From NCBI GenBank assembly GCA_036172245.1, contig JAYWIR010000004.1:2852001-2916000 (forward strand): a DNA stretch of 64,000 nucleotides, given 5' to 3'. Below the pieces are notes generated by a model. That model did not search any database, was not told the DNA's origin, and was given only the letters and a program-made list of their open reading frames with translations. Numbering within the stretch: the stretch's first letter is position 1; each line of letters opens with the position of its first letter. The translations under genes were made by a program, and so were the position numbers. The stretch is from Raillietiella orientalis. Lineage: Eukaryota. Below, piece by piece: positions 4,801-33,200 of the stretch.

Positions 4801-7800
4801 TTTTCATTCGGAAGTTTTCCCTCCAGTCATCCTTTGCTGGTTTCGATTCTGCTCGAGAATTCACAGGTTCTGCGTGGCCGCCCTCGGTCGTAGATGGCTT
4901 AGAAGTTGAAGCGGCCACGCAGCCCGGGGTTGCGGGAAAATGCCCGCAAAGTGTTCCTTCATCCGCAAGACACTTGCTTGTCTGTTCGTTCCTTCCCGAA
5001 TTGGTGTGCACTTCATGAACCTGCGTGCCAGGATGGAAATTTCGCTGCCTGTGAATCGTCCCTGCCGTCAAGGACGAACGCAGCTTTCCCTGTTGACGAG
5101 TTCGTCTGTGAACACCCCGAAACTCTTTTTGTAGCTGTGGCACCCCATGTGTGTCAGCTCCGTAAGAGATTCGTATCGGAAAACGCGAATGAACCCGTAC
5201 GAATTCCCTGCACGTTATTTGCCAATCATTAACGATCCGCAAACGTTGACGTAGACGTTAAGTACACGTGACGTGCTCTCATTCAGCACGACGGGAAAAC
5301 CAGCGTGACCAGCGAACCACCCCAACGCAGGCAGAGTGCAAGAGTCCCCCATCTTTTTATTTTTTTTTTTATTCGTTTTGAAATGGTCTCGAAAAAAAAA
5401 AAAAAACAACAACATCCATCCTTCTACTAGAAGAAAGATGAGCGGAGTGTCAGGGTGCGTCTCGAATCCGTGCTTGGTGGGCAGCCGAACACTGGCCGCA
5501 CATCCGCTTCCTCCCGCTCGTGCCAGAATGCTTCAGTCGCCGCACTTTGGTGTGCGAAGTGTTGTGCACGTCTGAATGAAAAGGCTAAGCGCTAGGAATC
5601 TGCGGTCGAAAGTTGTGGGTGCTGCTTCAATTTTTGTGCATCAAAGAAAATCACCTTTTGCTCATTCACTGGTACCATTGTATTTCAGCATTTTCTTCTC
5701 GCAAATTCATGACCTCCAGTTACTTCGACGGAACGCCGTTGTTCATTTGTCGAGCATGTAACAGAACTTACCGACACAAACGGTCACTAACCCGGCACAT
5801 GCGGAATCGGTGTGGGCTGTCCCCCAGACGGAAAAAGGCACTGAGGTTTCACCAAGGCGACTTAGGCTACAAGATGGAAGACTAACACCTTCAGAAAGCG
5901 CAGTGTTCTGGCAAAGAATTACACTGCAAACGTTCGCTGGGCAGCTCAGTATGATTTTGATAACCCAGTGTACTCCTCCGCCGCCGCCGCCTCCTGTGAA
6001 CATCATCAGTCACTGATTGGAAGCATCGTTGGTCTCGCCGTCTTGTTGGTTTGTTGTGCTTTCAATCGGCTGATTTCGGAGTGGCACCACGGCGCCACGG
6101 CCGAAACAAAAGCAGCAGGAGGTGACTGCAGTGCTCAGACGTGGTGGGTTTTGCCGCCTCGCTCCCCCCCATATCTGTAGGCTTGCGAGCTTGCAGGATT
6201 GCTAGCAGCATGGAATCCATTCAGAAAACCAGAATACCTACCTTTTCGCACGAATGATGTAGTGCTTTATTACCTCCCACTTAGGAAGGGGCAGATGACG
6301 TGGGTCACCAGGACGTGCTCAGAAGAAATGCAAGCATTGCTGAAGAGTTTACTGTTCTGGGGGAGGGGGGGGGGGATCCGTAGAAAGCCGTCGCATCTGG
6401 AAATGGTTCCAGGTTGTCTTGAATCGGCCTTACCTCTCGATCCCGCTTCGATGGCGCATCATGGGTCCGAAGACTCATCCATTCTCCAGGTTGTTCTCAA
6501 GGAGTTTTAGAGTGACGTGTCGGGGGGTTCTCCGTACAGCGATGGAATCCTGGCACTGCGCCCCTGTGGGGAAATCGTGGCAGCAGTCCTGTCGTACTGA
6601 GGGGCGCGGGCGGTTCTTCTTCTTCCGGAAGCCGCACTCCCCTCCTCAACGAGTTCCGGAAAGTTTCAGGAGCAACGCGTTTCCCGTAAGCGCTGTCCGG
6701 ACGCCCGTGGACCCTGCACCACTGAAACCTAATCCACTGCTGTAGCGCTCCCGGGAATTCCATTTTGTGCGTGTGGTAGAAAAGATGACGGTCACGCCGC
6801 TCGGCGGCTCCGACCTTGCGCAAGCAAACCAGCTGCCCACCGTGCCTCTTGCCGGAAGGCTCGGTGTTTCCGAAGCGTGGCATTTTACCGGGGCGCTGTG
6901 CACACCAAGGAGATCCCAGAAGCAGCTGCATACGCGTCTCTTGATGGGCGATGCTTTCCCCAAAGGACTGCCCTCTTACCAACCCTTAATCTGCAAGGGC
7001 TTTTCCCAAGAACTGATGAAATGGTCAGGCCAAAAGAACAACTTTCGGCGCCATCTATCTTCCCGAACATCTGCCGTGGACGCTCGGACGGACCCAGCGC
7101 CCTGAGATCTCCATTCCGTGACCTTGGGCGGTCGCGCGACGGTGGAACCGACCACCCGGTGAAAGGGGGAGAGGGGGCAGATGGCACCCTTGATGATCAA
7201 CCATTCACACTCTGAGAAGGGATAATCCAGTTCGGACCCCTGTGGCGACGGTCTCAGCGACCAGGGAACCGACGCCCTCGGCATGGTTCCTTGCAAAGCG
7301 GGCAGACGTTGATGCAGCGCAGAAGGTCCAGAAATTCTTGCCGAGAGGGACGGCCGAACGCGCGTCCCACGAACTGGAGGAAGCAAAAACCACCACCCCT
7401 GATGACCAGGAACATCACCAGGAAAGAGCTCGAGGGTGCTCCGCAAAGGAACGGGGAGGAAGGGGCCTGCGACCGCAAAATGCGAGCCGAAGAGGCATGG
7501 GTCGCTGGGCCGTGCTGGGATGTCGAGGTGCCGGAACAGCCACGCGAAGAAGAGGATGGGCGTGATCAGCGAGGTCCATCCCGCGTGCCCTCCTCCAGGG
7601 AGTGAGGAGGAGTCGTGGGCGGGTTCCACAAGCGCTCCCCTCCTCGGTCGACCGAAGCGGCGTCCTCTGTTTTGCGTCAGACGGGAAGCTGGCGCTGGCT
7701 TCACGGGATTGCAAGTGCGGCGGATTGCCGCGAGAGGCGCTGCTGCGAGTCGGCCTTGCGGGGAGCCGCCGACCACGAAGACCGTGCACTTGTACAGTTG

Positions 7801-9901
7801 GCTGAAGACAGAGACAAAGAGGGACCTGGAGACAAAGAACGACCTTCACGCACCCTTTCTACTCCTCCCTCCCCTCCATCCTCCCCCGGCTCGGGAGACG
7901 ACGAGCCCCTGGCGGCGAGCGACCGCAGCACGAGGTTACAAAACCAGAAAGGGGCAGAAAGCGGGAAGCGGAAGCAAGGGAGGAGGAAGCAGAGTATCCT
8001 CGCTTTTCCGTCCGCCATCTTTCTTCCCCTCCGGACATTCCAAGAACCCCACTCCCTATGCGGAAAGCGGCTGCAGGGAAGCTGGAGGGCTTCCGGAGAC
8101 CACACAAGAGGGACGCATCTTCCCTGGGGCATCTCGGATATTCAGAGATCAAAATGGCTTCCAGGAAGCAGGGAAATGGAAAGTGGAGGGAGAGGGAGTG
8201 GGGGGAGGAGGGAGTGAAGACACGTGGAGGATGAGGTCTGATTGGGCTAGGAAATGTCCCTCCTCCCCTCTACTGGATGTTCTTCTTCTCTGTCCTTCTC
8301 TGGGTCAAAGCTCTCTTCTTTTTTTTCGTTGCAGATGCTGCTCACCACTTGTTCAGGAAGGCGGAACTCCGCATCCCGGATAAACTCTTCCACCACGGGC
8401 CAAGGGGAGAGACGAGACGTGGGTGGGTGAGGAGGGGGGGGGGACGGCGCAGGTCTGTCTCTTAATTCCGGGACAGACATGGGGCACCCACCATTGCAGC
8501 CATCCTTCCTTTCTACTTCCTAGGTCCCGGCCTAGCGCTCGGCGCCTCCCCTCCTTCCCCCGGGAGGGAGGTCCTCCGGGGTCCTCTGCAGTCCAGAGTA
8601 GAGACGATGGTCGCAGCAGGCCACGTTTCCCCCCCCCCTCTCCCTTCCTCCAGCGTACCGTCGAAAGTACTGAGACAGCGTCCTGTTCTCGCCGATCCAT
8701 TGCCGGAAGGACGGCGACCTCCTCGGAGATGGGGCGAGAGGAGAAAGTGACCATCCTCCCGAGACGGTGGGCCGCCGCCTCCGGCAACGCCACATCAGGG
8801 GTGGTGGTTTTTGCTCCGTAGATCTGTCGAGACCAGGCGACCTGCTGTAGATGTAGCCATGGCACCCGAGAAAACCTCAGAACCAGGGACGACCGAGAGC
8901 AGGAAAGGAGAATGAAGGGCGCAGCCGTTCTGCCACCCTTTTTGCCTGCGCCCCAGAGACCCATTCCTCCCTCGCGCCGCGATTGGCGAGCGAACGGAGC
9001 GCCTCGCCCACCCCGGCGCGTCCGAGCACCGAGTCTCAGGGAAGAGGAGAAGCGGGGGGGGGGATTATTGATCCTTTGAACCATCGCTCTGAGGCGCGCC
9101 CTTCTCTCGCGTGGTCCCTCCTGGCCTCTTCGTTCCCGGAGCCGCGCTGGGGAAGTGTCAACCCCTACGCGCGCTCCGGAGCAGGGCAAACTGCGCCGCC
9201 TGTGCGCCGATCCGTGCGCGACGCGGCCTCCCGGCGGGCGGCGACGTCGCGATCCTCATCTCTCCTGCCTCCCTTTCGAACCAGGAGAGGATAAGGTGGG
9301 CGTCACGCAGCGGCACCGGAAGTTTCGCGCATGCTTTGCTGCACGCGTCGCTGAGGAAGAGGTCGAGAAACCCGTGGTCCGCCCGTGAACCCGTGGTCGC
9401 GGCGGCGGTGCGGAGGCCTCTGGTCTAGGAAGACCCCCCACTCCACCCCCGTAGGAGCGATCCGGGAGCGGTGCAGTCGCGCCTCCATCCTCACCGTGCC
9501 ACCGCCACCGCCACGCGTGACCGTGAGAGGTGTAGGCAGATTCCAGGTGGAGACCTAGCGAAACGGGGGAGAGGAGCGTTCCTAGGAAGCAGCTCCTCTT
9601 CTGCGATCCGAGGGAGCAGTTGCCAACCCGTTGCGGCTTCCTACGAGTGACCCGGACCACACGTCCAAGCAAAGATCGTGACCAGGTCCTCCACCAGCGT
9701 GTTGTCCAAGCAGAGGCCCACCAGGGCGTCTCTCGTGATGCCAACAAAGCTGTTGCACGACGAACTGCAGCAAGCGCGACAAACAGGGAAATATCGGTGG
9801 CAGCAACTGTGCCTCGGTCACTGGTCTCCCATGGCCCAGCAGCACTTACCTAGCGGACGTTGAATGCAAAACACCCCCTGCTTCCACCATAACGAATGCT
9901 C
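1175..9901 (-). CDS. Candidate 5' coding exons (9901-9850 and 1305-1175) of an unidentified minus-strand gene continuing left of the window
   Basis: Both exons have a pyrimidine-rich acceptor (ttttttccccttag; ttcttccacag) and a strong donor (AG|gtaagt; TG|gtaaga). Phases fit: MVEAGGVLHSTSA-R-LAAAAAAAYALPQTSLAHVSRACGSDRNLFDSQAFPEAKLERH, ending in phase 1. No homology recognised. Confidence 0.4.
3458..4283 (+). mobile_element. Degenerate, internally deleted piggyBac-family DNA transposon
   Basis: Left end TTAA|CCCTCTACAGGCC (3458-3474); the right end reverse-complements to CCCTCTAAAGTCC (11/13 match) and is followed by TAA. Related near-palindromes gagactttgaagtcac (~3478) and gtgactttcaagtcac (~3831). 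Frameshifted peptides resemble piggyBac transposase pieces (KHPVQFV..FDKQQGK; VREDEI..KRGRWKKTG..KTKCWK / LRLTPSTCCFMEFHA*, like the Cys-rich C-terminus). Confidence 0.7.
5689..5885 (+). CDS. Terminal exon encoding a single CCHC zinc finger of lola/BTB-ZF variable-exon type
   Basis: Acceptor tgtatttcag at 5688, phase 1; peptide FICRACNRTYRHKRSLTRHMRNRCG (C-x2-C-x12-H-x4-C), the pattern of the first finger of lola isoforms; stop at 5883-5885. No BTB exons in the window. Confidence 0.65.
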
Positions 9902-12900
9902 CTAAGGGGAAAAAAATAGAAAACCAAGTTCACGCTGCTCTGTAGGTCCACTTTGCTTAGTTTTGCCCCAAATGGGAAGGTCTACACATGACCAAGGAAA
10001 CTTCTCCCCAAACAGTGATCCCCGACAACAAAAAACTCGGTTCTCCCAACAAGAAGGTCCGTCGCAGCGATGCCTGCCTCCAGCTAGCGATTCCCACCTA
10101 GAAAGAGGATTCGCCCCTCCCTCCCCTTTTGCCCCTAATTACGCGTTCTTCTATGTCTTCATGGCAGGAACCGCGAAGCTGTTCTCAATCACCGATTCGG
10201 AACCTTTTGAGGGATGAACCCAGGGGATATTCAGATAGTAGGGGCACCGTAGCCGTAGAAAGTGGGAACCAGCTCATCATGGATCGGCATCCTTAGGGGG
10301 GTCCACATCTCCGCTTAACAGACGTGGAGTAAACTAGTGCTTTGAGAAAGCGTCTCTGCATCTGCAAGACGAAACAGACTCTTCTGTCACTTACAAACAA
10401 GTCACGATAATTTCAAGGACCTGGGCTTCGCGAAGCAATTGGTTCCTGCGGCGGCGTGGGGACACGGAATCATTCCCTTCCAAAGAAGGTCCCCGATCGG
10501 ATCTCCGCCTTCGCAGTACCGCCATTCAAATTGCTCCGTGACAGTTCACTTCTCCAAGAATATATTCATTACGAGATCTTGGAATTCGTGTTCCTTCTTT
10601 GCTCCCGCTGCCTGAAGTCTGTCAAACTTTTCCCAACTTTCGAAGAATTATGATGCGTTGGATTCCAAATTGACACTCTAAAAACTGACTTTCTGCGGAC
10701 AATGAATGACTTTTTTCTTTCGTATTCCCAGCAATCCCTCTTCCATCCCATTGCTGCTTTTGATTTTGGTTTTCTTTTCTTTTCCTGTAATTGGTGAGAT
10801 TCATATGACTAAATTGCACTACTGACATCTTATGAAAACTGTACACTTTTTTTTTTTCCTTTCGATGATTCTGATTTTTCAGTGTGCATATTTGTTCACT
10901 ACAAAAATCTGTGGAAATCTGAAGAAAAGAATACTGGATGTGTGCAAAATTCTTCTTGAAATTTCATGCGCTGGTTCATATTTTGCACCAGGGACCATGA
11001 AAATAAAAAACTCTTGCTTCGCTTCAGGCTGCAAATGGACTCAGGGCTTTTACCGGATTTTAACATGAGTGTACTAAAGTGCAAACTTTTTATTGGAAAC
11101 GACGAAATGAAATCTGGATTCTAGTCGATTTTCAACAAATTCCGTTTGCATAAATATGCAAAATTCATATGCAGATGCAAAATCCTTGTGAAACCATATG
11201 ATACACGAGTGGTTTTGCCGCAGCAGGCTGCAAATCCGTTGAAGAAATGAGCGACGGACCACAAGTCTATAAACAAAGAATGCCAACTTCTTGAAATTTA
11301 ATTCTGTTTGTGTGTGTTCGTTTAATTTATATGAACGGCTTCTACTTCTGTCGGCGTGACTATTAGGTAGTTGATTAACATCAGCAAGGTCCATAGGGAG
11401 CTTTCGAAAAATTCTCTCGGGTCGCGTTAGCTACAACCTGTACTGCTGGTAGCTGCCAACAACGCTATTATGCTCATTCACCTCTGAAATTTATAGACCT
11501 AGTATGAAGGAAGGTCCTTCTTTTCCTCTGATAGGAAATTTTTGAATAGCATCTTAGAGGATGTATTTCGATGAAAACAGTTATTATCATTGATTGCTGA
11601 ATGGAAACATATGTACTTGATTCTATTTTATAGGAATTTATTGATTTCCAGCACACATGATAAACATATTCGTATGATGATAGCATAATTTATCGAACAA
11701 GTTCATTGAAATTATATCTACAAGCGTTACCATGGGTTTATTACTGTAAGATCAACTTGGAAGATATTGCAGGACCTTGCTTAAAGGACACTTGAGTTCC
11801 ACATAATGGCTTATGGTAGTGCCAATTATTGATTGTATCAAATATCAAGCCGTGCTGGAAATATTTTCATTCTTAAATGGAGAATAGAATGGTACTTTGT
11901 TCAAGATGAAGAATAGAGTATGGAGTAATGGAGTATGCAATCTGATGTAAAGTAGTTTCTAGTCGAATTCGAAAGGAAAAAGAACTAAGATTGATTCAGT
12001 GTCATATTCCTTAGTCTGTTTGTAGATTATTGCAAAAAAGCCGTAATCTTTTCAACGATAAGTATGAACAAGTTTTGCATTGAAATTAATTCTAGAAATA
12101 TTCTTGAAAGATTGATAGCTGAAGTCAAACATCTTTCCCGAAAACTACTTATCTTCTCAAGGAAGCCCCCTCTTCATTGGAAATACAGAAATTCGAAACC
12201 CTGTTTGGACATCTCTGCTTCCCAATTTAAGAATATTGCGAGTACTGTAATGCAATTGGGAGGTTGTTCATCGAAGAGTTCCCCTGCTCATTGTTCTTCA
12301 GGATGCAACATACGAATGTATCTGTATCTATAAACACTAGCGTTAGTAACATGACCTGAGTTCTAAAACTCGTAAGCCTAGTACAACAGCTGTTTCGTGC
12401 TTGATGCAACCATGTTTTTTATGTACACCAAATCATATATTTCCTCAAACTGTATGCGGCTCTTTGGAAAGAGTTATAACACAAGCGTGCCTTGAAGTAA
12501 GCAATTGTGAGATACATGGGTTGGCATTCTTGACATATTAGAAGCTCTTTAATCTTCCAGATATTTTGGAATGCTATTAAATTCTCATCGCGAACTTTGG
12601 TTTCTATAGGTGGAACATTTGTGATTGCAGTACCGATCCAGGGGAAAAAAGTAAAATTAGCAATTTGCATGATACTTATTAAAAGTAAACTGAAAGGTGC
12701 ACCAGATTAATCATTACGACTACATTCAAAAAATTTCACCTATCCCTTTTTTTTGTAAGCGCTAACTTGGTTTTGTATATGCCTTATAATTGTTGAAGAG
12801 AGATTCCTGTTCTTTCATTTAATTTTTGGAGAACTCTTTGCGCGAATATATCTGGCAATGACCAGTCAGTCCTTAAAAAATGTTAGTCTCAGGTGCATAT

Positions 12901-13373: not shown

Positions 13374-14719
13374 ATGAGAATGTTTAACAGACTTTTGCGT
13401 TGGCAGCACAAGGTACCACTTGTGCATTTCATATGTGGTTTGAGTCGCGCATTGAAGGCACTAAAAGTAACAAAGAAAGGTGAAACGGTAAGTCAGCCGT
13501 CATAGTACAAACCCCACAAAGTGTTCATTTGCCTACAGCTATTGTCATTTGTTGATTATAAAACAATAAAAGCAATAGGAGGTAATGGGGGCAAAGGCTG
13601 TGTTTCTTTCATGAGGCTATGGTGCAATCCCACTGCAGGACCAGATGGAGGTGATGGAGGACATGGAGGACATGTTTTGTTGAAAGTAATGCTACTTTCA
13701 GTCATGGTGTATTTTGTTGTATAGGCATCTATTAGCACAAAATCTTTAGTTGATGTGCATGATGTCTTGAAAGCTGATGATGGTGAAAAAGGAACCACAT
13801 GTAATTGTAATGGGAAAAATGCAGAACATTTAATTGTCAATGTCCCTGTTGGAACTCTGGTCAAGGACCAGGATGGAAAATTAGTTGGAGATTTAAAAAA
13901 GGATGGAGCAATGTTTATAGCAGCTAGAGGAGGAGCTGGGGGAAAAGGCAATTGTTTTTTTGCAAGCAGCACAGAACAAACTCCCCAAGTTGCTGAGTGC
14001 GGTGGCTGTGGAGAAATGTGCCATTATATTCTGGAAATGGCAACTATGGCTCACGTTGGATTGGTAAGCATGTAGATAATTAGTAGCATGAAATGTATGC
14101 AGATTGGCTTTCCAAATGCAGGCAAATCAACTTTGCTACGTGCTATAACAAGGGCAAGACCTCGAGTTGCTTCATATCCATATACAACACTTAAGCCACA
14201 TGTTGGGGTTGTAGAATTTGATGACTTCGAACAAGTAACAGGTTAACATGGAATATTGCTTGCTAAACTAGTTTTCAAACATGGTGCAATGCAGTAGCTG
14301 ATATTCCTGGATTGATACCAGATGCACACAAAAACAAAGGATTAGGCATTGCATTCCTACGTCATATTGAAAGATGTTTAGGCCTTCTCTATGTGATAGA
14401 CATGTCTCAACCAGATCCACAACATCAGTTGGACCTGCTTTTCCAAGAACTGGAACACTACAAACCTGGCTTATCCCAGCGCCCCCATGCAATCATAGCA
14501 AATAAAATTGATTTGCTTGCAGAAGAGGTAAAGTTTAATCAGATAAAGTCATTTTTTTTAACATGTCATTTTTTAAAGGATAAATTGCATCAGCTGGCTG
14601 CTGACATCAAAGGAAAAGTAATACCTATCTCTGCCAAATATGGAAAAAACATAGGAACCCTTCTTAAACAGATTCGATACTTGTGGGATCTACACCAAGA
14701 ACATGGAAACCAAAGCTGA
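13374..14719 (+). CDS. MTG2: Mitochondrial ribosome-associated GTPase 2 (Obg family, GTPBP5), ~370 aa; exons 13374-13487, 13539-13685, 13725-14063, 14103-14241, 14295-14527, 14579-14719
   Basis: Obg Gly-rich fold ([28 protein letters not shown]), G1 [10 protein letters not shown]2 YPYTTLKP, G3 [13 protein letters not shown]4 NKID; basic N-terminal presequence; all introns GT-AG. Confidence 0.95.
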
Positions 14720-14763
14720 CAGGAAGGTTAAATCAACGCTGGATTACTGTGAGAATCTGTACA

Positions 14764-14769
14764 AATAAA
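14764..14769 (+). terminator. Poly(A) signal AATAAA of MTG2
   Basis: AATAAA about 45 nt after the MTG2 stop. Confidence 0.6.
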
Positions 14770-14796
14770 CAACAAAATGGTATATTCAGAAAAGAA

Positions 14797-17700
14797 TTAG
14801 AAACTTGCCTTGGGTTGTTGAGTAACAGTATTAAACCATCGTTCCAAGGCAAACAATTCTTTTTCTTCAGCTACTTGGTGCACCTTGTGACTTGCTGGAA
14901 ATAGCACTCCAGCCACACTTATATCAGCTAAAGTAAAAACATCTCCCACAAGATAGGTATGATGCAATAATTTACTATGCAGCACATTCAAGTAATATAA
15001 AACTTCCTGTTGACTACGAGCGTTCTTCTGCATCCACCCAGCTACAGCTGGTAAAAGTTCATAACCTGCAAACATCATCCACTGCAGAATATGGCTTCTT
15101 TGTAATAAAGTGCTTCCTTTGAATTCCTGTGAAGAAACATATAGGGAGGCTGCAATCCAGTCTGTAAGAGAATCTTTTGCCGATATTTGCAACTGTAGAA
15201 AAGAAGATTCCTGTACAGTGACTTTGGTGCCATATGCAGCTGCCATTTGTACTATTATTCCTTTCACTTCATTAGGATCACAAAGAAGAGTCAACACATT
15301 TTGATTAGTAGTAGTAGTAATGACAGAGGTAGCATCACACTTAACAAGGGTCGCAAATTTTTGCTTGGCAAATTCCTCAGCTACTTTCATAGCTTGTTGG
15401 AGCTGATTAGGGGCAGAACCAACACATTGGGCACTTGCAGCTTTGCCTCCTGATTTGCCACAGATAATGCTGGCCACAGAAGCAACCCATTCATCTGCTT
15501 TAAGGCCACTATTTAGGCCATGAGCAGAAACAGAGGCTAAGACTACGACGTGTTCTTTATTTGAATCCACAGAAAAAAACATTGCTGACAAATTAGGAGA
15601 TTTGTTTCGTACCAGTTTCAATGCAGCATCTAGAATCTGCATCCATGCTTGATGTACCCAACTAAGAAATTCATATCCATTACCTTTGCTTCAGAACTAG
15701 CATTGAACTGATGAATCCAGAAAAGGTTCTTGACATGAAAAAGACATTGTTCGCATTGCTTCAGAACTTGTGCTTGAAGCATAGCTTTCCAATTACGCTC
15801 TTGGTCATCCAACGCTCTCTTCAATGCTTTGAGTTGATCCTTGAACTCTTCCTAAAATTTCAGTGGCTATTCAATTCTTTCATTCCACACCTTAATCCAT
15901 AATGATATAGGAGCAGATGCTACATCCTCACTTAAAGACGTTACTTCTTTTTTGGTAACCAAGCCTGTTTTGAAATTGTTTTGAAGCTGGTCAACTTTCT
16001 GACTCAATTCCTGGCTCAAGTTTTTTGCCTGTGAATCAAAAACATGAACATCCTCAAATGCTATTTCACTATACCTTTTGAGCTAGATCACCTGATAATG
16101 CCACAATCCTACGAATACCTTTTGAGATAGCCTCTTCACTAATAATACTCAGATGGACAAGGTGCCCAGTTGATAGGAGGTGTCTGCAACTCTCCATAAA
16201 ACAATCAATGACAACTAATCACTTACGTGCCACCACACAGTTCTACAGAGGTAGCGAAGCCTAACGAACTATTTGGATCCTTAAGCAACTCCTGGGCTGG
16301 AACTCCAACTGAGACAACACGCACAGGATCAGGATATGTCTCGTCAAACACAGCTCGCAATCCTTTGATAGCTTTTGCTTGCTTTAGGGGCACATGCTCC
16401 ATATATACCGGTTCACTTCTTTCAATAAATTTTTGCACCAATGACTCACACTCCTTCAGCTGCTCTTTAGTTACAGCCCTCTAAAATGCTTGTCAGTCTC
16501 TTGTAGAGAAATTTGCTGATTTACTGGATGAGAGAAATCAAATCGAAGTCGATCCGCAGCTACAAGAGATCCTCGTTGCTCAACATCAGATTGAATTATC
16601 TGATGCAATGCAAAATTGAGCAAATGAGTGGCAGTATGATTCTGCATCAATTGTAGACGACGTTTAGAGTCAACAAACATACGGACAGAGTCCCCAACTT
16701 GTAAATTTCCTTCCTTTAAAATACCTCGGTGGATTACATATCCTCCTTTTAACTGAACATCAAGCACGCAAAAAACTGCAGACTAAAAAAACAAATATTC
16801 CATTCCAGCTCAATCATTGATTTCTTATTACCTGTGCTCCATCCTTATACATAACACCATGATCACTCTCCTGGCCTCCAGCTTCGGCATAAAAGCATGT
16901 TTGATTTAGAATTAGTGCAGCTTCTTGCCCTTCCATTAGTTGATCTACAAATCCATTCTGATTTTTAATACACACCACCTGTCCCAAGCAAGGAGGAAAA
17001 GCTGAGCCCAATTTTAGAGATTATCCAACTCACTCACAGTAATGGAAAATTTGTTGAGAATCTGCTTCTGCAGCATATTGGTATTTAAAGCTATCATTTG
17101 AAGGAGGGATACTCTGACGCAATTCAGCAATATCATGGACATTCAAGCTAAAGTGCTGATCAGAAGCACTAGAAGTGCCCTGGGACAGCATCTGCGCTTC
17201 ACGCTTGCAAATTTCATAGCCTTCCATGTCTACACTTAATCCCTGCTCCTCACATAACAATACAGTAAGGTCCACAGGAAAGCCATGGGTATCATAAAGT
17301 TTCCAGGCAATGTGACCAGGCACAATTGTACTTTCAGATAAACCCTCTACAGCTCGATTTAAAAACTGTTCACCTCTGTTTAGGGTTTTCAAAAATTGAA
17401 TTTCCTCCTCATTTATGATATCCTCAATTAGCACATGATCTTTAAATAACTACCAAACCCATCCTTGCTCACAAACTGCAACTAAAACACTTACTTCAGG
17501 AAAAATTCCTCCTAGACTGTTGGCAACAACTGGCACTAGTGATCCAAGCAAACCAGGTGCAGCTTTAAACTTATCAGCTGCATATCGAACTGCACGGCGC
17601 AGTATACGCCGTAATACATATCTGATCTGAATTTATTTCCAAATATGAAAAAGGTGTTCCTACCCTCTCCCTGTATTATCTGGTCTACCTCCATCAGCAA

Positions 17701-18860
17701 GAGCAACTGTTAGAGTGCGAGCATGATCAGCCAACACACGATAAGCCATGTCAATTTTATCAACATCTTCAACACCTACTTTGCCTCCATACGGTGGCAT
17801 ACCAGTTTTCTTAAATCAACAATTGAAAACAAATTTTTCACACTATGCTGACCTGTTGAATCGCTACAAATAACTCACAAAACAAGTCAGTATCATAATT
17901 AGATGGGCAGCCCTGAACAACTGAAACCAATCTTTCTAATCCCATGCCACAATCAATGTGCTTCATTGGAAGTGGGAGCAGAGTACCATCTGCCTCTCTA
18001 AATGCTAGAATGAATAACATGATCAAATCCTTAACATTACCGATTATACTGGATAAATACTAGATTCCAAATCTCCAAAACTTCAGGAACATCTTGGTTG
18101 ACAAATGAAGTAGCATTCCTATTACCCACACGGTCATAATGGATTTCAGAGCAAGGTCCACAGGGACCCACCTCTCCCATTTCCCAGAAATTATCTTTCA
18201 TTCCAAAAGGTAATATACGGTCTTCTGGTATACTGTGACAACTTATAGATCAGTTGAACTGAACTGAACTTCTGTACCCTAATGAAAGCCAAATCTGACG
18301 GCACTCCTCATCAGCAGCTAGGCCAGTGGTGCTATCCCCACCAAAATAAGTGATATACATTCTGTCTGCATCCAATTTGTATATTTCTGTGAGTAATTCC
18401 CAAGCCCATGCACAAATTTCCTTCTGAAAGCAAAAAGATAATTATCATAACTATTAAAATATGAAATTAGAACTTCACTTTAAAATAATCTCCAAAGGAC
18501 CAGTTTCCCAGCATTTCAAAAAACGTATGATGATAAACATCTTTTCCAACATCATCCAAATCATTATGCTTTCCACCTGCTCTGATGCACTTCTGACTGT
18601 TACAGACCCTTTTGAGTTTTGCAAAATCACTATTAGGATCTACAGTGCCCAGAAATATACTTTTGAACTGAATTTCAAAGACATTTATATGGATAGTAAG
18701 AATTATGCTAGATTTTAACCTGATTCATGCCAGCATTTGCAAATAGTATCGATGCATCATCTAATGGAATAGTTGAGGATGAATGGACATAAGTATGATT
18801 TCTTGTTAAAAAGAATTTCAAGAAAGTTGATCGAATATCGGCAGAACTCATTATCTTCAT
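14797..18860 (-). CDS. AARS1: Cytoplasmic alanyl-tRNA synthetase, 15 coding exons, with an extra C-terminal GST-like domain
   Basis: [66 protein letters not shown], editing motifs NHTATHLL and ELCGGTH, C-Ala GKSGGK; 14 GT-AG introns of 36-55 bp restore the frame. Last exon 15636-14797. Confidence 0.97.
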
Positions 18861-20555: not shown

Positions 20556-22376
20556 ATGGCCCATGCTTGTAAGAGGTATGAAGATCGTATAATGAAATGC
20601 ACTGTCATGATTTGGGTAATTCTCATTCATGTAGAAAGCTTGAAGATGTCTTGGAGAAAGTACATATCGCAAAAGTGGATCAGAACGAGCTAACAGGAAT
20701 TTCACAGGCAATATATTTCACCGAGACAAAAAATTTAAGTGATGGCATTTTGATTGAATTGAATCCACAGCTTGAAGATTACATCATTAATGGCAAAGTG
20801 TAAGTCTGAATTAGTAAACCTATGTTTAACGAGTATTTGGCATTTAGTAGCATCACTACTAAGGATGCTTCTGCTTTCTATTAACCTGATTTGATTTAAA
20901 TGGATTAAAGGAACTGTATATTAAAATACTGCTCTATTTTAGATTAACACTCAGAGGGGAGCTACACGAAAATGCATGTATCTGTACAGCAGACGAAACT
21001 TTTGAGCTCAAAAAAGTTGAAACATCAGACACTCTATTACTATTGGAAAATGTCTTGAGACCTGAAGACACCAAGTCATCTGCTGGTAAGCAGTTATGCA
21101 AGCAAGAGGTAAAGTAACCAGCTTTCTAAATTGAGTTTTTTGGAGTTTTGTAACTGAAAACTAAGTTGTTCAACTAAGTGTAGGATTTTAAGAATCATTT
21201 CTTAGAATCTGTTTATGAAATTAACTAATCATATGGTGATTGAAACAAATATTGCGATGGATTTATCGATTTGTTTTGTTGAATTAAATTATTTATGTAC
21301 ATAATCTACACTGATGAAAGGTCTTTTATTGGCAGCATGAATCCTGTTTGCACAGGGTTTTGAAAAACATCTAGTAAATGTTTTTATTCATTAATATGAT
21401 TTAGTAATTGCATATTTTGAGGTATGTGGAATGCATTCATCATTTCTGGAAGCGAAAAAAATTGTGCCTTCTCAGCAAAAACTGAGAAATCTGCTTTTAC
21501 AAAGTGCTTACCGAGGTATTGCAGAAGAAGAGAAAATAACTCATCCCAAGTTTTCCACTTATGACTTCAAGCAAATTATTCAAGCCAGTGAAGCTGAACT
21601 GATGATTACTTTGCAGAGATTGCATGCCTTCAATCTGAATGGATTTTGGAGAGTTCTAGATTTCGATTATCAATTTTCTGTAGTTTCACTGATTCTGAAA
21701 TTTATAAATGAGAATTCATGGGATCTAACAGCCATCCGTAAAGATGAAATTGTGACTGAACTCGCTGTATTAGAACCAGCAGATATTCTTGAGCATTGCT
21801 GCAAATTGATTCTGAGATCAGTTAGTGAACAAGGTGTGTACTGATTCTGGTTACAACTAATAAGCAATCATCAGAACACTCACTGTATTCCTTGCATGAT
21901 AGTGTGGTGTGCAAGATTTTAGGTGAAATGTTGTTAAAGTCTGCTGGTCAGTTTCATTTGCAAGAATTTGAGCAGATTTGGCAGCAAAGTGTGCCAGAAG
22001 GTAGATTCAGCACAATATAAATGCAACTGTGGCTGACACATGTATAGGTTTGACGACTCACTTGTCACAACTAGAAGGATTAGCCCTAGTCAATCGTTCC
22101 ACACATCCAGAAATCATAATATATTTTCCAGTGTCCAGCTTGCCAGATGAACCATCAGAGCGATTTCGGTGCCTTTTTGAAGTCCAGGATAAATGGACCT
22201 ATGAGCAAATTCAGCCATATCTCTTGTAAGTCACTTGTTGGATTCAGTGTCTTTATTTATCAGTTTTCAGGGACTTAGCCCAAGATTCCAAACATGTTAG
22301 TGTGTTGCTTACCAGATATGCTCGTATTTCTCATGGTGATGGGAATAAGTATTACTCATGTAAACATGGAAAGTAA
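20556..22376 (+). CDS. DSCC1: Sister chromatid cohesion protein DCC1, ~388 aa; exons 20556-20575, 20635-20799, 20943-21085, 21405-21833, 21875-22000, 22048-22225, 22271-22376
   Basis: LRGELHENACICTADETFELKKVETSDTLLL, IQASEAEL, GFWRVLDFDY, WQQSVPEG, LEGLALV, ERFRCLFEVQDKWTYEQIQPY, LLTRYAR match the Dcc1 family. First exon less certain. Confidence 0.92.
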
Positions 22377-26977: not shown

Positions 26978-28690
26978 TCATGAAGCTGCCAAAATCATTG
27001 TATGCTGACCCCCTCCTGCCACTCTCAGCACTTTCCGATTTTCAAGCTGAGCACTAATTACTCTGGTTGGGACATGAACATCGTCTTCTCCCAAACCTAA
27101 CTGATTATTTGTTCCCATTCCCCATGCATACAAGGCACCTTCACAAACAAACAAACAGTGGAAATACAAAGCATATTCCTAAATCTCACATACCTGTGTT
27201 GCTGACAGCATAGGACACAGCTTCTCCACAATCAATATCTGTACACTTGATGTTTTCTAATGTTGGGATAAGGGTGGGTTCTGATGCATCACTACAGGCA
27301 GCACCTAAGCCTAGACGTCCATACTCTTTTCTTCCCAATGAATAAACATGGCCTTCAAATCACCAAGTTCAAAGAATTACAAAAAAAAAAAACAGGTAAC
27401 CTTCTGAATCAAGTGCTAAGACATGATGCTGTCCTCCTGCAATTTTTTTCCATTGCCTCTTAGAAAAATTCCATGAGATAACAGCATGGTTCACTGTTTC
27501 TTTAGTTGGGACAGCTAGCTGATCATAATTATTCAAACCACACACATATATATTATTGCTGCTACGTTCTTTCATGTATGTGGCATAAGAGCTAGCCCAA
27601 CAGTCACTGAAGCAAATGTTGCGCTTTCTCACATTGATAGGCTTTGGAATCAAGCACATATCTGATAACATCTGAAGCATTTGTGGAAAAAAGGGAAATC
27701 TATGCCTACCCCGTCCTCTGCGTCCACCACGTGTTGCAAAAAATCTTGCTACTCGACCTAACTGGCCCTGCTCAGCTGACCCACAAGTGTAAATAAGCCC
27801 CTGATCGGTCAAACAAACAAGATGGTTTACACCAGAACTGATCTTAACAACTTTTGGAAGTGATAATTCCACAGGTTCTGATGATGATGATTCACTATTT
27901 AGTAATCCCAATGCACCAGATGAGTCCTGATAGCTGGGAGTACAGTAGGCATTCCCAAGATAGTTGGACTCACACGAAATATACCCCACACAAAGACCCG
28001 TCCATCAGTTAGTAGAGCAGCAGAATGGGAGTCACCTGCAGATATCTGAGTCACATCACCAGGTAAGGACACTTTGCCAGGCTGAAAATTTTCTTCTTCT
28101 TTTTTTGTCTCCCTGCCAAGAGCATTCTCATCATTGCAGCCCCAAGAGTACACCTACTAGCAATATGATGTTGTCTAGCAATTAATCTCAAGTTACCTCA
28201 TGATTTTCTGTAATGCACAAACTGTGCATTCCTCCTGCACAGATTGCCAAGACATGACCAGGTAAACCTGGCACTACAGCAGCTCTACCTTTATCCAAAA
28301 TATCAGGCCCCAAGCCTAGCTGGCCAACATCCCCTGTACCCATAGCCAATACATCTCCATGTGTCTCTGGTGTAGTAGGAAAGGAAATAGGTTCTAAAAT
28401 GTTCTTTATCATATGATTCTGCACCATCTATCAGGCATTACCTGGAACCAGTTTCCTTGACCTTTTGGCTGGTAATTGTTGGACTTCATTGGCACATAAA
28501 GTTGCAACCCATGGATCAGAAGGGACTGATTTGGGATGTTTACTTATTTTCTTGGAAGTTTGCTGCACACTGTGTAAAGATTTTCCAGCCTTCTGCTTGT
28601 TCTACAGGAATCAGTTTGTAACCTAGCACCTTACCAACTTACCACCAGCTTGGATTTTGGCATATTCAGAATAGCATGTGCCCTTGTCAT
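26978..28690 (-). CDS. RCC1: Regulator of chromosome condensation 1 (Ran GEF); start at 28690 or 28663 (MPKSK)
   Basis: RCC1 repeats: GTGDVGQLGLG, AGGMHSLC, YSWGCNDENALGR, SAGDSHSAAL, VWGIFRDSSGALG, GSAEQGQLGR, RGGRRG, GLNNYDQL, GGQHHVLAL, GRKEYGRLGLG, WGMGTNNQLGLG, GGQHTMIL; basic N-terminal tail; short GT-AG introns. Confidence 0.95.
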
Positions 28691-28960: not shown

Positions 28961-30257
28961 TTAACTGGGATAAGGAGCACAACTAATTCCTTGGCTGTCT
29001 TCAAGATATGTGTCTTCCTCCTCACCATCCAGATCATCTGCCAACAAATGGTGCTTGTGGCGCTGTCGAAGAGGAAAGTCAGTGTCCTCACTTGACCTTA
29101 ACTTCCTAAATTCATAGACTAGAGGGAAGATTTGTTCAATAGCAGCCTGGACATTAACAACACTAGGTGCTGATCACATAAGTGGATTTTTTTTTTTTTT
29201 GATAGCTAACACTGTCCCACTCACCAGTCACTGTAATGCTGCCAGTAGAGAAAATCTTGAGAACTGCACGCAATTCTCGAATTTTGAAAGTGGAGCCAGG
29301 ATGAAGTTCTGGTTCATAACTGTAAAGAAAACAATCAAGTGCTGCAAGAACTTTATCTTCTAAGAATCAGTAAATCAGCAAAATAATACTTTGTTGATTT
29401 ACACACCTTGCTTGTGGCTTGTACTTCTCTGAAAAATTTGCAATTTTAATACCAAAAGGCATTGTGCAGGTGCCCAGAACATTGACAATGCGGAAATTGT
29501 GAAAGCGAACTCTAAATCCCAACTTCTGTAATGCACGGGCGAATTTTCTAGCAGCTTTTTTTGAATTCTCTTCACTAAAAATAAGTTTTAAGAGGGTTCA
29601 TCTTTTCAAGCAAGCCAACTGCATTTCATGCAACACTGTTACTAAAACACAGCTTAAAAAAAAAATAATTCAGATTTATATGCATCCATAGCTATGGATA
29701 CATCTGTTTTTCTGCATTCACTGTTTTAAACAAACAAACCTTGTAGCACCAGTACAAGTGATTTTTCCAGATGACCAAATGCTGGCGGTGCATGGTGGAT
29801 TTCGTATTTTCATAGTAACCATCTGAAAAAATTTTTTTTAATTGTACACTGTATTGCAACAATGAAAATTGATTTTCAACGAATCCTTCAAACACATAGG
29901 TACTCCTCACATGTCCCCCAAAACGATTAACAAAGTGCATACAGCGTCAAGATGAAATAAATGCATACATAACTTAAATAGACATTCCATTCTTACCCCA
30001 TTGGCTTTTCGATATTCCACGTTTAATCCATTCATTGCGATTTGACGCAAATTCAAATGGCAACGAACATTAAAATTGCAAACAACATTATTGATTACAA
30101 CACCAATAATAGGTTCTTCATCTTTATTCGTTTCATCAGGTTCACAATCTCTTGTAAACAAGTTTGGTAGGTGACAATTTTCATTGGGAGAAGTATTATC
30201 AAGTGTATTTTTGAGAGTATTATGGTGTTCTGAATTTTCTTCCGAACTTTCTGCCAT
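28961..30257 (-). CDS. TBPL1: TBP-related factor 2 / TBP-like protein 1, ~271 aa; exons 30257-29997, 29822-29740, 29574-29407, 29319-29225, 29169-28961
   Basis: INNVVCNFNVRCHLNLRQIA, TASIWSSGKITCTGATS, ARALQKLGF, IVNVLGTCTMPFGI, SYEPELHPG, LKIFSTGSITVTAP are TRF2-type rather than TBP-type; acidic C-terminal tail. Confidence 0.95.
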
Positions 30258-33200
30258 GTCTAGGCATCTTGAAACATGAGATCTGCTTTCAGATAATACT
30301 TAAATTGCATTCTTTTCAATTTGATTCGATGAATAATTTTTTTTTTTTTTTTCTTATGGAAAGCTTTATAGAATATCAACCAACAACCACGACTGTTTTA
30401 ACTTCAAATTTCGCAATGTAAATTCTACCATAATAAAGCCGATGAACATTTTTGCAAAAATTGCTTCGAGTTTTTCCCAATGACTTTGCTCATCAGTTCT
30501 GAATTTCGGATTTTCTTAGAAACACCAACACGCGTGCGCCGCACACCGAACCGCAATGCAAACTAAATTGCCATTTTAAATTCCCGTATCACACACTCCT
30601 CTGCGGAAGTACGATAAATTCCCAACTTTGCACGAATCTGTGTTCGTCAGATCGGAGTGTGTACAATTTACTGCTTGAAATTATGCTGCTGCATAAATTA
30701 AAATCACGTGTGTTCCCTGCTCTTCCTTTGTTAGGGATGGTTTCGTTCCCGCTGCCAAATTCACGAGGAGGACGGGGATGTTCTGCTTCCTCCTGACGAC
30801 AGGAAATAATCGGAAAAAAAAATATATATATATATAATCATTTTCCAGGAAAAAGACTGTTCTGAAAGATTGACCGGAAAACATGGGAACAACAGGAACA
30901 TCGTACCGAATGCACATGTAACGATGATTCCTTAAAGTATATGCTCATGTAAGCCACAGTAAGAATTTTTTTTTTTTTTTTTTTCCCTCACCCTCAGAAA
31001 GGCTACTCATCACGATAAAAATTTTAATACGTGATGTCGTCAAATAATTAGAAGGATTAAAACAGACGATATTATTAACAAATCTACTACCACTCGTGCT
31101 ATATGTGTAGCTGATCAGTGGGCATGCACAGTTTGTGGTCTTTGAACAGCTTGATGCCTCACAATCCAATTGTGGAATATAATATGCAATGTTTAAAGGG
31201 CAGCACAAAACGAAAGGTATCCAACAGGGAATGGAAAATCGAATTTTTATTTTTATAAACGCCGGAACGAAATTATAAAGATATATATATATATATACAC
31301 ATATAAATACGTTACTGCGGTAAATTGCAAACAGGAAGTTTTAAAAGCAGAGGGAGAATTGCTGCTCACGATTGGCAGTTCTTACAAGACGAAAAGAGAT
31401 GAAGGTACAGTGGTCACAGCATGACATATAAATCACCATTTTTCCAATTGCACACTGCCTTCATGACAGAGCAATTGGCCAAATGGCATTAAGCGCAACA
31501 ACACGAATTCACGGGAAACCTTCTGTGGCTGTGAAGTGAAATTTTTACAATAAAGAATAATGTATTTTTACATTACACTCTTGCGAGTTTGAGGTGTACT
31601 TCACACCCAGTTGATCAGCCCATGCTTTGGAACTCGGAGTTGTATTCCCGTCTGCTCTTTAGCTTTTCGTTAGGTTTTCATACAGTTATTTAAGTAATGA
31701 TTATGGCATGCAGTGTCACTGCAGTGATCTCCTCAATGGTGACTGAAGATTCTTACGGAGAACCTTTCGGATCTACAGAGAGCTTCACACATCTATAGGG
31801 ATTTTGGAATGGCGTGAGAAGGTTGCCAAATTTAAATTGCGTTCTTCAGAATTGCTTAAATCCAAAGGAAGATTGAGTAGCGAAATCATGCAATAAAAGT
31901 CACATTGATTTTCTGCACAAATCGAAATGAGGATTGTGATTTTTCTTTTTTTTTTTTCGACCGCAAGAAAGTTTCATTAATAGTCATGGTCGATATCTGA
32001 CAGCGAAGAAGACCTTGCACCCCAATGTGAAGGGAATGCTCCCAACGTGGTTTCTAAAGGAGCGAAAGCAAGTTATCGATGATTCACGTACTCTTAGATT
32101 GTGTCAATTCCAAGTCAGGAGTGACTTTTGCACCGTTACCACAGTTTGCAATTTCTTAACGTACATACAAAGGATGCTTTTAATGTTTATCTGGAATGGA
32201 GGTTCATTTCGAGACACATATACCGATGATGGCACAGCAGCAAACATGGCCATTCGCTATGAAAACTGGATACAAATAATGTACTTACATTAGCATTTGT
32301 TCCGTCAATAATTACATTCGTTATCATCGTACATTCGATATGGGGAATTCATTGTTGCTTACCGAAAAATCGAAAACAAAGCTTATCGAAATTTCTTGAA
32401 AACACAGCCAACGGCACCGCTGATGTAAACCCATTTTAGCTATTCTGAATTTCTCGATGAGTGATGCAATGCAATGCATTTCCCTTCAGACAATAGCTTT
32501 CGGATACTTACACTTTTACATGCAATGCTTGAGGCACCTTTCGGATCCGAGGAACCCTCTTTTGAGATCCTCGCCTTGGAGCAACCAGGAAAGCCCTCCC
32601 TTTCTCTCCGGTTATGTTGTACTCTGTCGATTCCCACCCGTGCAAACTCTGCCAAAGAAAAGATGCATATAAATCAAAACTGGACGGGCATACTCTTTCC
32701 CTAGTCAATATTTGATAAGCACGTAAATAGTAAGGGAACATTCGACAAGAGCTCTTGAATCTTTTGAAGCAAAATCTCTTTGGGATAACTAGATAAAAAC
32801 AAAGCAAGGAAATTCCTAAGAAAGGAATTATTGCAAGGGGGAATGAACTGATGAATTTTTTATAATCGGTAGTAAACTTGCACTTGAAAAATAGGAATTG
32901 CAGTTTTAAGATTATGCAAAACTCAGAGCCCATGGACTTTTTAATGGCCAACAGAGAAACCACGGAACCCGAATTATGAATGCCCGCTAAAATGCTGAAA
33001 ATAAGAACTCTTGAGACTTCTAGGAGATGTTCTTGAGCATCAAAAATCTGGACAATGCATCACTGTAAAGAATGAAGCGTATCTTTCTTGAGGTGTTTCT
33101 AGACATCATACGAAAAGACTGAAGATTCCCCCAAACCGGGACTCATTAGCAAATTATAGAGAGTACAGATAGATGATTTAGAAGAAGAAGAGAATAGCAC

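Follow-up and report, generated by a model that had tools for sequence, protein, structure and literature searches.

A C-terminal GST-like domain of eEF1B-gamma type in the reading frame of an alanyl-tRNA synthetase gene from Raillietiella orientalis

GST-like domains on synthetases and elongation factors

Eukaryotic synthetases and elongation factors are held together in their assemblies by appended GST-like domains. To our knowledge, alanyl-tRNA synthetase (AlaRS) has been treated as a free-standing enzyme without a GST-like domain. The GST carriers given in AARS Online are CysRS, GluRS-E, MetRS and ValRS; AlaRS is not among them. Reviews, in their accessible parts, place GST-like domains N-terminally on MetRS, GluProRS and ValRS but describe no such domain for AlaRS, which makes a C-terminal placement on AlaRS unusual, in line with a first-pass annotation of the present DNA that had called these domains typically N-terminal in synthetases and AlaRS normally free-standing. 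A full-text literature search outside subscription journals and supplements returned, in the text available, no description of a C-terminal GST or EF1G fusion of AlaRS. In the window (the whole 64-kb stretch of R. orientalis DNA that was analysed), an AlaRS frame continued into a GST-like tail of 185 aa, which was compared with the closest described systems.

The best match of the tail among solved structures, by both sequence and fold, was the GST-like domain of human eEF1B-gamma (5DQS, with eEF1B-alpha; 5JPO, with eEF1B-delta; 9A9S, the EF1 complex). Tail residues 68-182 aligned to chain residues 76-201, residue 68 falling on residue 76 of human EF1-gamma (phmmer), and the motifs QW..FA, TYLVG(E/D)..TLADI and RWF.T...QP were shared; identity in the Foldseek alignments was only ~22-24%. 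Unlike its human counterpart, the window domain is located at the C-terminus of an AlaRS and has neither helix alpha2 nor a Lys-rich linker nor an EF1G C-terminal domain.

According to the accessible part of one report (PMC4394549), vertebrate ValRS cannot bind the EF1B-beta subunit without its GST-like domain, which seems to be confined to Deuterostomia. As a synthetase docking on eEF1B through an EF1B-type GST-like domain (the ValRS-eEF1H complex), it is the proposed functional analogue of the window AlaRS. ValRS is a class I enzyme with an N-terminal domain whose binding was shown experimentally, whereas the window AlaRS belongs to class II and carries a C-terminal domain whose binding is proposed. 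The GST-homology domains of the multi-synthetase complex (MSC; MetRS, EPRS, AIMP2 and AIMP3) have the same fold as the tail and are likewise protein-assembly modules on synthetases, but they are N-terminal on the synthetases and their sequence match to the tail was much weaker (E 1e-3 to 2e-2).

An AlaRS gene continuing past its normal end

The AlaRS-GST gene was intact on the minus strand (18851..14797), where splice mapping placed 15 exons separated by 14 introns of GT-AG type, each 36-67 nt long. The features of the gene and of its 3' surroundings are listed below, with a slash at splice sites.

14797..18851, minus strand: complete AlaRS-GST coding region (tblastn with AlaRS P0157 and P0155, splice mapping, PF01411 on single exons)
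14797..15636, minus strand: last exon, holding the C-Ala/DHHA1 end of AlaRS and the whole GST tail (acceptor GCATGGATGCAG/ATT at 15636, closing a 47-nt intron; DHHA1 and GST_C on one ORF)
15355..15636, minus strand: C-Ala/DHHA1 end of AlaRS, last residues ...EEFAKQKF (Pfam DHHA1; aligned with the C-terminal ends of cnidarian AlaRS that have no tail)
14797..14799, minus strand: TAA stop, in the reading without terminal splicing, after ...QQPKASF (read from ORF and sequence)
14757..14808, minus strand: candidate 52-nt GC-AG terminal mini-intron, AAG/GCAAGT ... TTTGTACAG/ (read from sequence)
13521..14719, plus strand: convergent neighbouring gene for an Obg-family GTPase (ORFs; GTP1_OBG, E 5.7e-27 on 13755..14075)

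The assembled model of 1134 aa (1141 aa if an alternative junction 12 is used) contained no internal stop and aligned end to end with AlaRS. Its residues 1-1133 were 51.5% identical to the Blattella protein P0157, while identity to cnidarian AlaRS (53%) extended over residues 1-949 only. Translations of single exons matched PF01411, the class II(A) catalytic and tRNA-recognition domain (E 3.8e-32, 2.8e-22 and 4.6e-29). Both zinc motifs of the editing domain were present, HxxxH as HTATH within the exon ORF 16471..16782 and CxxxH as CGGT/H across the exon junction at 16227; the editing region aligned to AlaRS P0157 and P0155, and the single-exon translations all stayed below the Pfam threshold for tRNA_SAD. 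Judged from its sequence, the gene apparently encodes a full-length, functional class II AlaRS of eukaryotic cytosolic type. An Rfam search of the window gave no match.

The AlaRS end and the tail belong to one exon, because splice mapping placed the last exon at 15636..14797. The minus-strand ORF over this exon (14797..15642, 281 aa) matched both DHHA1 (E 1.3e-10, ORF residues 2-93) and GST_C (E 3.6e-8), with no stop between the normal AlaRS end (...EEFAKQKF, 15355) and the 185-aa tail (15354..14800). The tblastn alignment of the Xenia AlaRS P0155 (963 aa) reached its residue 960 at window position 15358, and its own sequence finished a few residues later. The first-pass annotation had read the frame as passing the normal AlaRS end near 15355 into a tail of ~185 aa through a Thr-rich linker, and this reading was confirmed. 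A run of 185 stop-free codons in DNA of ~39% GC, together with the GST_C score, is far more than expected by chance.

No ATG was found from the junction to the first strand of the tail domain. A separate gene for the tail, with a start of its own, was rejected: the first tail methionine is residue 37, which lies within helix alpha1.

At the 3' end, splicing of the candidate mini-intron would change the C-terminus to ...QQPKILTVIQR, with the stop at 14735..14733. Its size fits the 36-67-nt introns of the gene, and ILTVI fits the QPxVxxVV pattern of homologues. The stop of the Obg-family GTPase gene is 77 nt from the AlaRS-GST stop, and therefore there is no room for more tail exons before that gene.

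Fold, kinship and recurrence of the tail

The tail alone matched Pfam GST_C (PF00043) over residues 113-181, with an E value of 1.8e-8 and 34.9 bits against a cut-off of 20.7, and it also gave a sub-threshold match to Arc1p_N_like. Its AlphaFold2 model (pLDDT 91.4, pTM 0.85) displayed both GST subdomains at pLDDT >95, but without helix alpha2. Three parts were delimited.

15295..15354, minus strand: Thr-rich linker of ~20 aa, predicted disordered (pLDDT <50 at tail-model residues 1-3 and 7-16)
15136..15294, minus strand: reduced thioredoxin-like N-subdomain, beta1-alpha1-beta2-beta3/4-alpha3, without helix alpha2 and its loop (DSSP E21-25, H30-40, E45-49, E54-56, H66-73)
14800..15135, minus strand: helical GST C-subdomain (GST_C) of EF1B-gamma type (Pfam GST_C on residues 113-181; phmmer 5DQS on 68-182; H83-108, H112-129, H142-164, H168-178)

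From beta1 (residue 21) to residue 67, the tail has 47 residues against 75 in human EF1-gamma, which makes the N-subdomain 28 residues shorter; the last ~15 residues seen in homologues are absent as well. All seven columns that were invariant or at least 90% conserved in a 68-row alignment were kept in the tail (W92, T133, A143, D144, R172, W173 and T176).

Among solved structures, the best match by sequence was human EF1-gamma (5DQS/5JPO, E 9.4e-10), followed by Gtt2 (1.7e-4), EPRS (1.3e-3), MetRS (2.3e-3) and AIMP3 (7.9e-3). The six best rows of the Foldseek search against the PDB were all eEF1B-gamma (four 5JPO chains, 5DQS and 9A9S; TMq 0.73-0.80), with TMq values of 0.74-0.80 for 5JPO. 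These comparisons place the tail closer to the eEF1B-gamma GST-like domain than to other GST-like families. The earlier identification of the tail as a GST-like domain of EF1B-gamma type was thus borne out by the GST_C match above its cut-off and by the rank of 5DQS/5JPO in sequence and fold, as was its expectation that a domain search of the last 185 aa would return a GST fold. The EF1G C-terminal domain (PF00647) was not found on the AlaRS-GST ORF by Pfam, nor elsewhere in the 64-kb window by tblastn with P0157 and P0059; therefore the tail is an eEF1B-gamma-derived domain and not an eEF1B-gamma.

The same junction was found in other organisms. Among the 150 representative matches listed, nine joined the AlaRS C-terminal end to this GST in one ORF, and 37 carried the EF1G C-terminal domain. 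P0157, a cockroach protein named in NCBI 'Alanine--tRNA ligase [Blattella germanica]' (1403 aa), comprises an AlaRS and a whole eEF1B-gamma (PF01411, PF07973, PF02272, GST_N, GST_C and EF1G). As in the window, the EF1B-gamma-like GST domain follows its AlaRS directly and without a start methionine; unlike the window gene, which ends after GST_C, it keeps the complete GST_N, the Lys-rich linker and EF1G. Two neighbouring genes could, in principle, have been merged in the Blattella gene model. In P0059, a single ORF of 650 aa runs from the AlaRS end through GST to EF1G, and the fragment P0111 from the stick insect Dryococelus australis joins the AlaRS end to GST at the same junction as the window. 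The highest identity of the tail to any relative was ~33-41%.

A HisRS record (P0058) carried a C-terminal GST of the same kind, which hints that such fusions are commoner than catalogued.

Word-based searches, in which a null result is weak evidence, returned only one EF1G-like protein for the tail alone (325-2000 aa; E 7.8e-4), only two tail-less cnidarian AlaRS for the last exon (493-2000 aa), and Blattella as the sole match in the alignment search restricted to 1139-3250 aa, with no other named full-length AlaRS-GST. In the ESM Atlas, no usable match was obtained for the last-exon product, and the Blattella C-terminal part met only ordinary EF1-gamma clusters (0.82, below the level that counts).

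In a careful tree, the AlaRS-fused sequences P0012 and P0059/P0121 formed a group with the window tail (unstarred, support 90/80). The Blattella P0157 tail fell in the other group of fused tails. The window tail was on a long branch (2.33) and inside no starred clade, and a quick tree of 68 rows had no starred clade and was too poorly resolved to place it. Monophyly of the 10 fused tails together with the window tail was not rejected (p-AU 0.24). The C-terminal AlaRS-GST fusion is not unique to the lineage of the window; the first-pass suggestion of an acquisition peculiar to this lineage did not hold, given the same junction in nine of the 150 representative matches listed, in B. germanica and in D. 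australis, and a common origin that was not rejected. The relatives with a whole eEF1B-gamma behind AlaRS (P0157 and P0059) suggest that the window tail is what trimming has left of a fusion between AlaRS and eEF1B-gamma.

Proposed docking on eEF1B and alternative readings

The gene is probably a genuine fusion of AlaRS with an eEF1B-gamma GST-like domain, whose tail would be a docking module linking AlaRS to the eEF1B complex. A full-length AlaRS of cytosolic type would have gained the domain at its C-Ala/DHHA1 end through a flexible linker of ~20 residues, and the window copy would then have been pared to the GST module, with loss of helix alpha2, while P0157 and P0059 kept the whole eEF1B-gamma including EF1G. 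We infer that the tail is expressed and that protein docking is its most likely role. It would attach AlaRS to eEF1B by binding the N-terminal domains of eEF1B-alpha/delta, like the human gamma GST-like domain, or alternatively may pair in GST fashion, either with a true eEF1B-gamma or with the tail of another AlaRS molecule. Through such partners, Ala-tRNA might be made beside the factor reloading eEF1A and be channelled, as in the vertebrate ValRS-eEF1H complex.

It is unlikely, though worth weighing, that the tail is chiefly a self-association module giving an AlaRS dimer independent of eEF1B. A homodimer prediction for tail residues 21-185 scored 0.32, against 0.00 for the best of three controls, with 100% contact agreement between runs, a partner pLDDT of 90 and an interface at residues 57-98 (alpha3/alpha4), the canonical GST dimer face; the model supports binding and does not show it. 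This score is exactly at the mark; 21 of 30 one-chain pairs among solved proteins attained it, none of 23 solved as single chains did, and among eukaryotic proteins 17 of 29 did. GST dimers are abundantly represented among solved structures, and since only one of the seven eukaryotic cases without an older solved relative reached the mark, the pass may reflect memory of them. The predicted face could equally pair with a genuine eEF1B-gamma GST domain, so that the prediction also speaks for the docking reading, and no advantage of dimerisation was indicated by the analysis.

Recruitment of AlaRS to the MSC rather than to eEF1B, by pairing of the tail with MetRS, Glu(Pro)RS, AIMP2 or AIMP3 through their GST-homology domains, is improbable. 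Two articles, in their accessible parts, name AlaRS among the proteins associated with the complex of Trypanosoma brucei (PMC4394549, PMC8319005). The sequence matches of the tail to EPRS, MetRS and AIMP3 (E 1.3e-3 to 8e-3), its fold matches to 5A5H, 5BMU, 5A34 and 5Y6L (TMq 0.65-0.70) and the sub-threshold Arc1p_N_like match are also consistent with this reading, but EF1B-gamma matched better by at least five orders of magnitude in sequence and ranked first by fold, and the eEF1B-gamma-specific EF1G domain is present in relatives of the tail. Helix alpha2, which forms part of one MSC GST interface, is absent from the tail model.

Absence of the tail from the mature protein, through an assembly error that removed a stop, 3' processing before the tail, or decay under no selection, is very improbable. 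Over 14700..15700, one DNA run (share 0.29) and no RNA run were listed; the contigs of the DNA run (14600-14729 and 14828-15146) were identical to the window, and neither spans the junction. The tail is shortened in both subdomains relative to homologues and lies on a long branch, and the missing alpha2, last ~15 residues and EF1G domain could mark a decaying remnant. Against this, the 185 codons are free of stops and encode a confidently predicted GST fold, all seven conserved columns are kept, the tail carries no separate start codon, the DNA run agrees with the window over 14828-15146, and the same junction lies within one ORF in nine other sequence clusters and two named insects.

Catalysis by the tail as a glutathione transferase, a second activity for AlaRS, is the least credible reading: the GST_C match and the plant phi-class and bacterial GSTs among the fold matches would allow it, but helix alpha2, whose region builds the glutathione site (G-site) of GSTs, is missing with its loop from the modelled N-subdomain (47 residues against 75), the nearest relatives are non-enzymatic translation-factor domains, and a glutathione-dependent enzyme is therefore very unlikely for a tail trimmed to the GST module.

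Docking on eEF1B is the preferred role of the tail. More tentatively, and with considerable doubt, AlaRS may long ago have been fused to a duplicate of eEF1B-gamma, and this fusion may be common to many invertebrates (insects, possibly crustaceans, R. orientalis) and other eukaryotes, and may build an AlaRS-eEF1B 'heavy' elongation complex as the counterpart of ValRS-eEF1H. Different animal branches would then have hard-wired different synthetases to the factor recharging eEF1A, with the R. orientalis copy pared to a minimal docking module.

If C-terminal fusion of AlaRS to eEF1B-gamma is recurrent, the GST carriers of AARS Online would grow to five synthetase families, AlaRS being the first of class II. 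The graded forms (whole eEF1B-gamma, GST only, GST without alpha2) constitute a natural deletion series for the docking requirement of eEF1B-gamma. The fusion would also offer a testable case of tRNA channelling beyond ValRS-eEF1H, and through it the charging of tRNA may be coupled to elongation.

Gene structure and the AlaRS/tail junction

The 3' end of the alanyl-tRNA synthetase (AlaRS) gene was carried by a 281-aa ORF on the minus strand (15642 to 14797), encoding the AlaRS end and a GST-like tail without interruption. As the first-pass annotation had proposed, the AlaRS frame ran on in-frame into a C-terminal GST-like domain, with DHHA1 (residues 2-93, E 1.3e-10) and GST_C (residues 209-277, E 3.6e-8) matched on the same ORF (Pfam). 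The junction, expected at about 15355, was confirmed there, since one ORF carried both domains and the alignment of tail-less cnidarian AlaRS from Xenia (P0155, 963 aa) and Porites (P0156) stopped at 15358, where both proteins end. Tail residues are numbered from this junction. The following features were mapped.

15636..14797, minus strand: last exon of the AlaRS gene (splice-site search)
14799..14797, minus strand: stop codon TAA, end of the 281-aa ORF
within 14733..14809, minus strand: candidate GC-AG mini-intron, with a consensus GC donor (AAG|GCAAGT) just before the stop
13521..14719, plus strand: convergent Obg-family GTPase gene (ORF and domain matches)
21395..21841, plus strand: Dcc1 cohesion factor
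27372..28427, minus strand: RCC1-repeat protein
29163..30299, minus strand: TBP-like factor

AlaRS proteins gave 15 collinear blocks (18851 to 14803, tblastn), and searching for splice sites with the Blattella germanica AlaRS record (P0157) as guide gave 14 GT-AG introns of 36-67 nt; given the extent of the last exon, AlaRS end and tail lie in a single exon. The assembled model (1134 aa, or 1141 aa with alternative junction 12; no internal stops) was about 53% identical to cnidarian AlaRS, limited to residues 1-949/956, and 51.5% identical to P0157 over residues 1-1133, i.e., tail included. Single exons matched PF01411 (E 1e-22 to 1e-32), and both motifs of the editing site, HTATH and CGGT|H, were found. 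From the uninterrupted model, the AlaRS identity, PF01411 and these motifs, the enzyme part looks functional.

All 14 introns of the gene (14797..18851) were tiny. Most measured 42-55 nt, as would suit a genome whose introns are generally compact; the window DNA was eukaryotic, with very short introns. The candidate mini-intron was GC-AG, in contrast to these GT-AG introns, and had a pyrimidine-rich acceptor (TTTGTACAG) 52 nt downstream of its donor. Its splicing would change the C-terminus from ...QQPK-ASF (stop) to ...QQPK-ILTVIQR (stop), the latter sequence fitting the QPxVxxVV helix of homologues better. The Obg-family gene ended at 14719, its stop 77 nt from that of AlaRS-GST. No Rfam family reached threshold in the whole 64-kb window. 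G+C content was 0.59-0.62 at 6001..10000 and 0.51 at 34001..36000, against about 0.38 around the AlaRS gene.

Identity and fold of the tail

On the last 185 aa alone, GST_C scored above the Pfam curated cut-off (34.9 versus 20.7 bits, E 1.8e-8), as anticipated. The proposed EF1B-gamma type was upheld by sequence and by structure. Among PDB chains, the top sequence match was the human eEF1B-gamma GST-like domain (5DQS/5JPO, E 9.4e-10, tail residues 68-182), followed by yeast Gtt2 (1.7e-4), EPRS (1.3e-3), MetRS (2.3e-3) and AIMP3 (7.9e-3). Foldseek against PDB ranked eEF1B-gamma first (four 5JPO chains, 5DQS, 9A9S; TMq 0.73-0.80), then EPRS/AIMP GST-like domains and plant GSTs. The AlphaFold2 model, computed from an alignment of 68 rows (mean pLDDT 91.4, pTM 0.85), displayed three parts.

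Tail residues 1-20: disordered linker
Tail residues 21-73: reduced thioredoxin-like subdomain, beta-alpha-beta-beta-alpha, without helix alpha2
Tail residues 83-178: four long helices

Because the EF1G C-terminal domain was found neither on the ORF nor elsewhere in the 64-kb window, the tail is, judging from sequence, a GST-like domain derived from eEF1B-gamma and not the whole protein.

Relatives and phylogeny

A HMMER search with the tail against 1.84 billion representatives returned 154 proteins at E <= 1e-3 (closest 41% identical) and none at E <= 1e-30. Among the best 150 of these 154, 37 contained the EF1G C-terminal domain, and nine had the last part of AlaRS directly before GST in one ORF (P0007, P0012, P0026, P0029, P0059, P0103, P0111 from Dryococelus australis, P0112 and P0121). 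The best relative, P0002 from Daphnia pulex, was a partial 193-aa record, its upstream context lying beyond the record.

P0059 encoded an AlaRS C-terminal region, GST and EF1G domain in one 650-aa ORF. P0157, recorded as 'Alanine--tRNA ligase [Blattella germanica]' (1403 aa) and recovered when long proteins were searched with a profile, harbored AlaRS domains, GST_N, GST_C and EF1G, its eEF1B-gamma part starting without a methionine of its own. Two adjacent genes might have been merged in this prediction, but single ORFs of the P0059 type speak for a genuine full AlaRS-eEF1B-gamma fusion in one organism or more. Entire eEF1B-gamma behind AlaRS, EF1G included, was seen in the P0059/P0121 cluster (ENA, six members) and in P0157; P0121 itself had lost the EF1G part and had a low-complexity end, perhaps intron read-through. 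Fused records other than Blattella and Dryococelus were Logan, ENA or JGI sequences.

In a careful tree (32 rows of known context, with ten fused tails besides that of the window), the window tail grouped with AlaRS-fused P0012 and P0059/P0121 at an unstarred support of 90/80, the remaining seven fused tails formed a second group, and a third comprised 18 of the 20 canonical EF1-gamma rows. A single clade of the ten fused tails and the window tail was not rejected (p-AU 0.24). The exact place of the window tail is unsure because its branch is long (2.33). A quick 68-row tree was poorly resolved.

Proposed docking on eEF1B and standing of the architecture

By entry title, 5DQS pairs the human gamma GST-like domain with that of eEF1B-alpha, and 5JPO with the eEF1B-delta N-terminal domain. 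According to PMC4394549, the GST-like domain of vertebrate ValRS binds eEF1B; it is N-terminal, whereas the window AlaRS tail is C-terminal. From these best-matching complexes and the ValRS analogy, the tail may be read as a docking module that would place AlaRS on eEF1B, joined to the enzyme by a flexible linker some 20 residues long. We infer this docking, and likewise expression, partners and channelling.

The tail might instead serve purely for dimerisation. A homodimer prediction of tail residues 21-185 scored 0.32, versus 0.00 for the best of three controls, with 100% contact agreement between runs and a partner pLDDT of 90. Of proteins solved as same-chain pairs, 21 of 30 reached the mark, against none of 23 solved as single chains. 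The eukaryotic figure was 17 of 29, yet only 1 of 7 where no relative had been solved earlier, and the pass may therefore reflect structures memorised by the predictor. The model supports self-binding without demonstrating it. The predicted interface comprised tail residues 57-98 on helices alpha3 and alpha4, the face by which GSTs canonically dimerise; either a second tail or genuine eEF1B-gamma could bind there. A role in joining AlaRS to the multi-synthetase complex is less likely, similarity to the GST-like domains of that complex being weaker. An active GST is disfavored by the helix alpha2 missing from the model, a loss that, given GST structure, makes glutathione-dependent catalysis unlikely. 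An untranslated or decaying tail agrees poorly with the uninterrupted frame, the high-confidence fold, the recurrence of the fusion in other organisms and the seven alignment columns that are invariant or at least 90% conserved, each of them listed by its residue in the window tail.

Two further architectures were observed. P0058 (JGI metagenome protein, 673 aa; cluster members P0171 and P0172) joined a histidyl-tRNA synthetase core and anticodon-binding domain to a complete, EF1B-gamma-type C-terminal GST_N+GST_C, a second class II synthetase with an appendage of the same kind. P0014 (1852 aa, representative library) was a predicted protein repeating GST_N, GST_C and EF1G four times in tandem; the gene caller probably merged neighboring tandem genes here.

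In the domain table of AARS Online, GST is given for CysRS, GluRS-E, MetRS and ValRS and no others (PMC11580382), and no description of an AlaRS bearing either GST or EF1G was found in the open full-text literature searched. The novelty raised by the first-pass annotation holds in part: AlaRS-GST recurs in nine of the 150 relatives listed and in Blattella, and is unremarked rather than unseen, because the public Blattella and Dryococelus records carry it. The window AlaRS belongs among the synthetases with an appended GST-like, putatively docking, domain.
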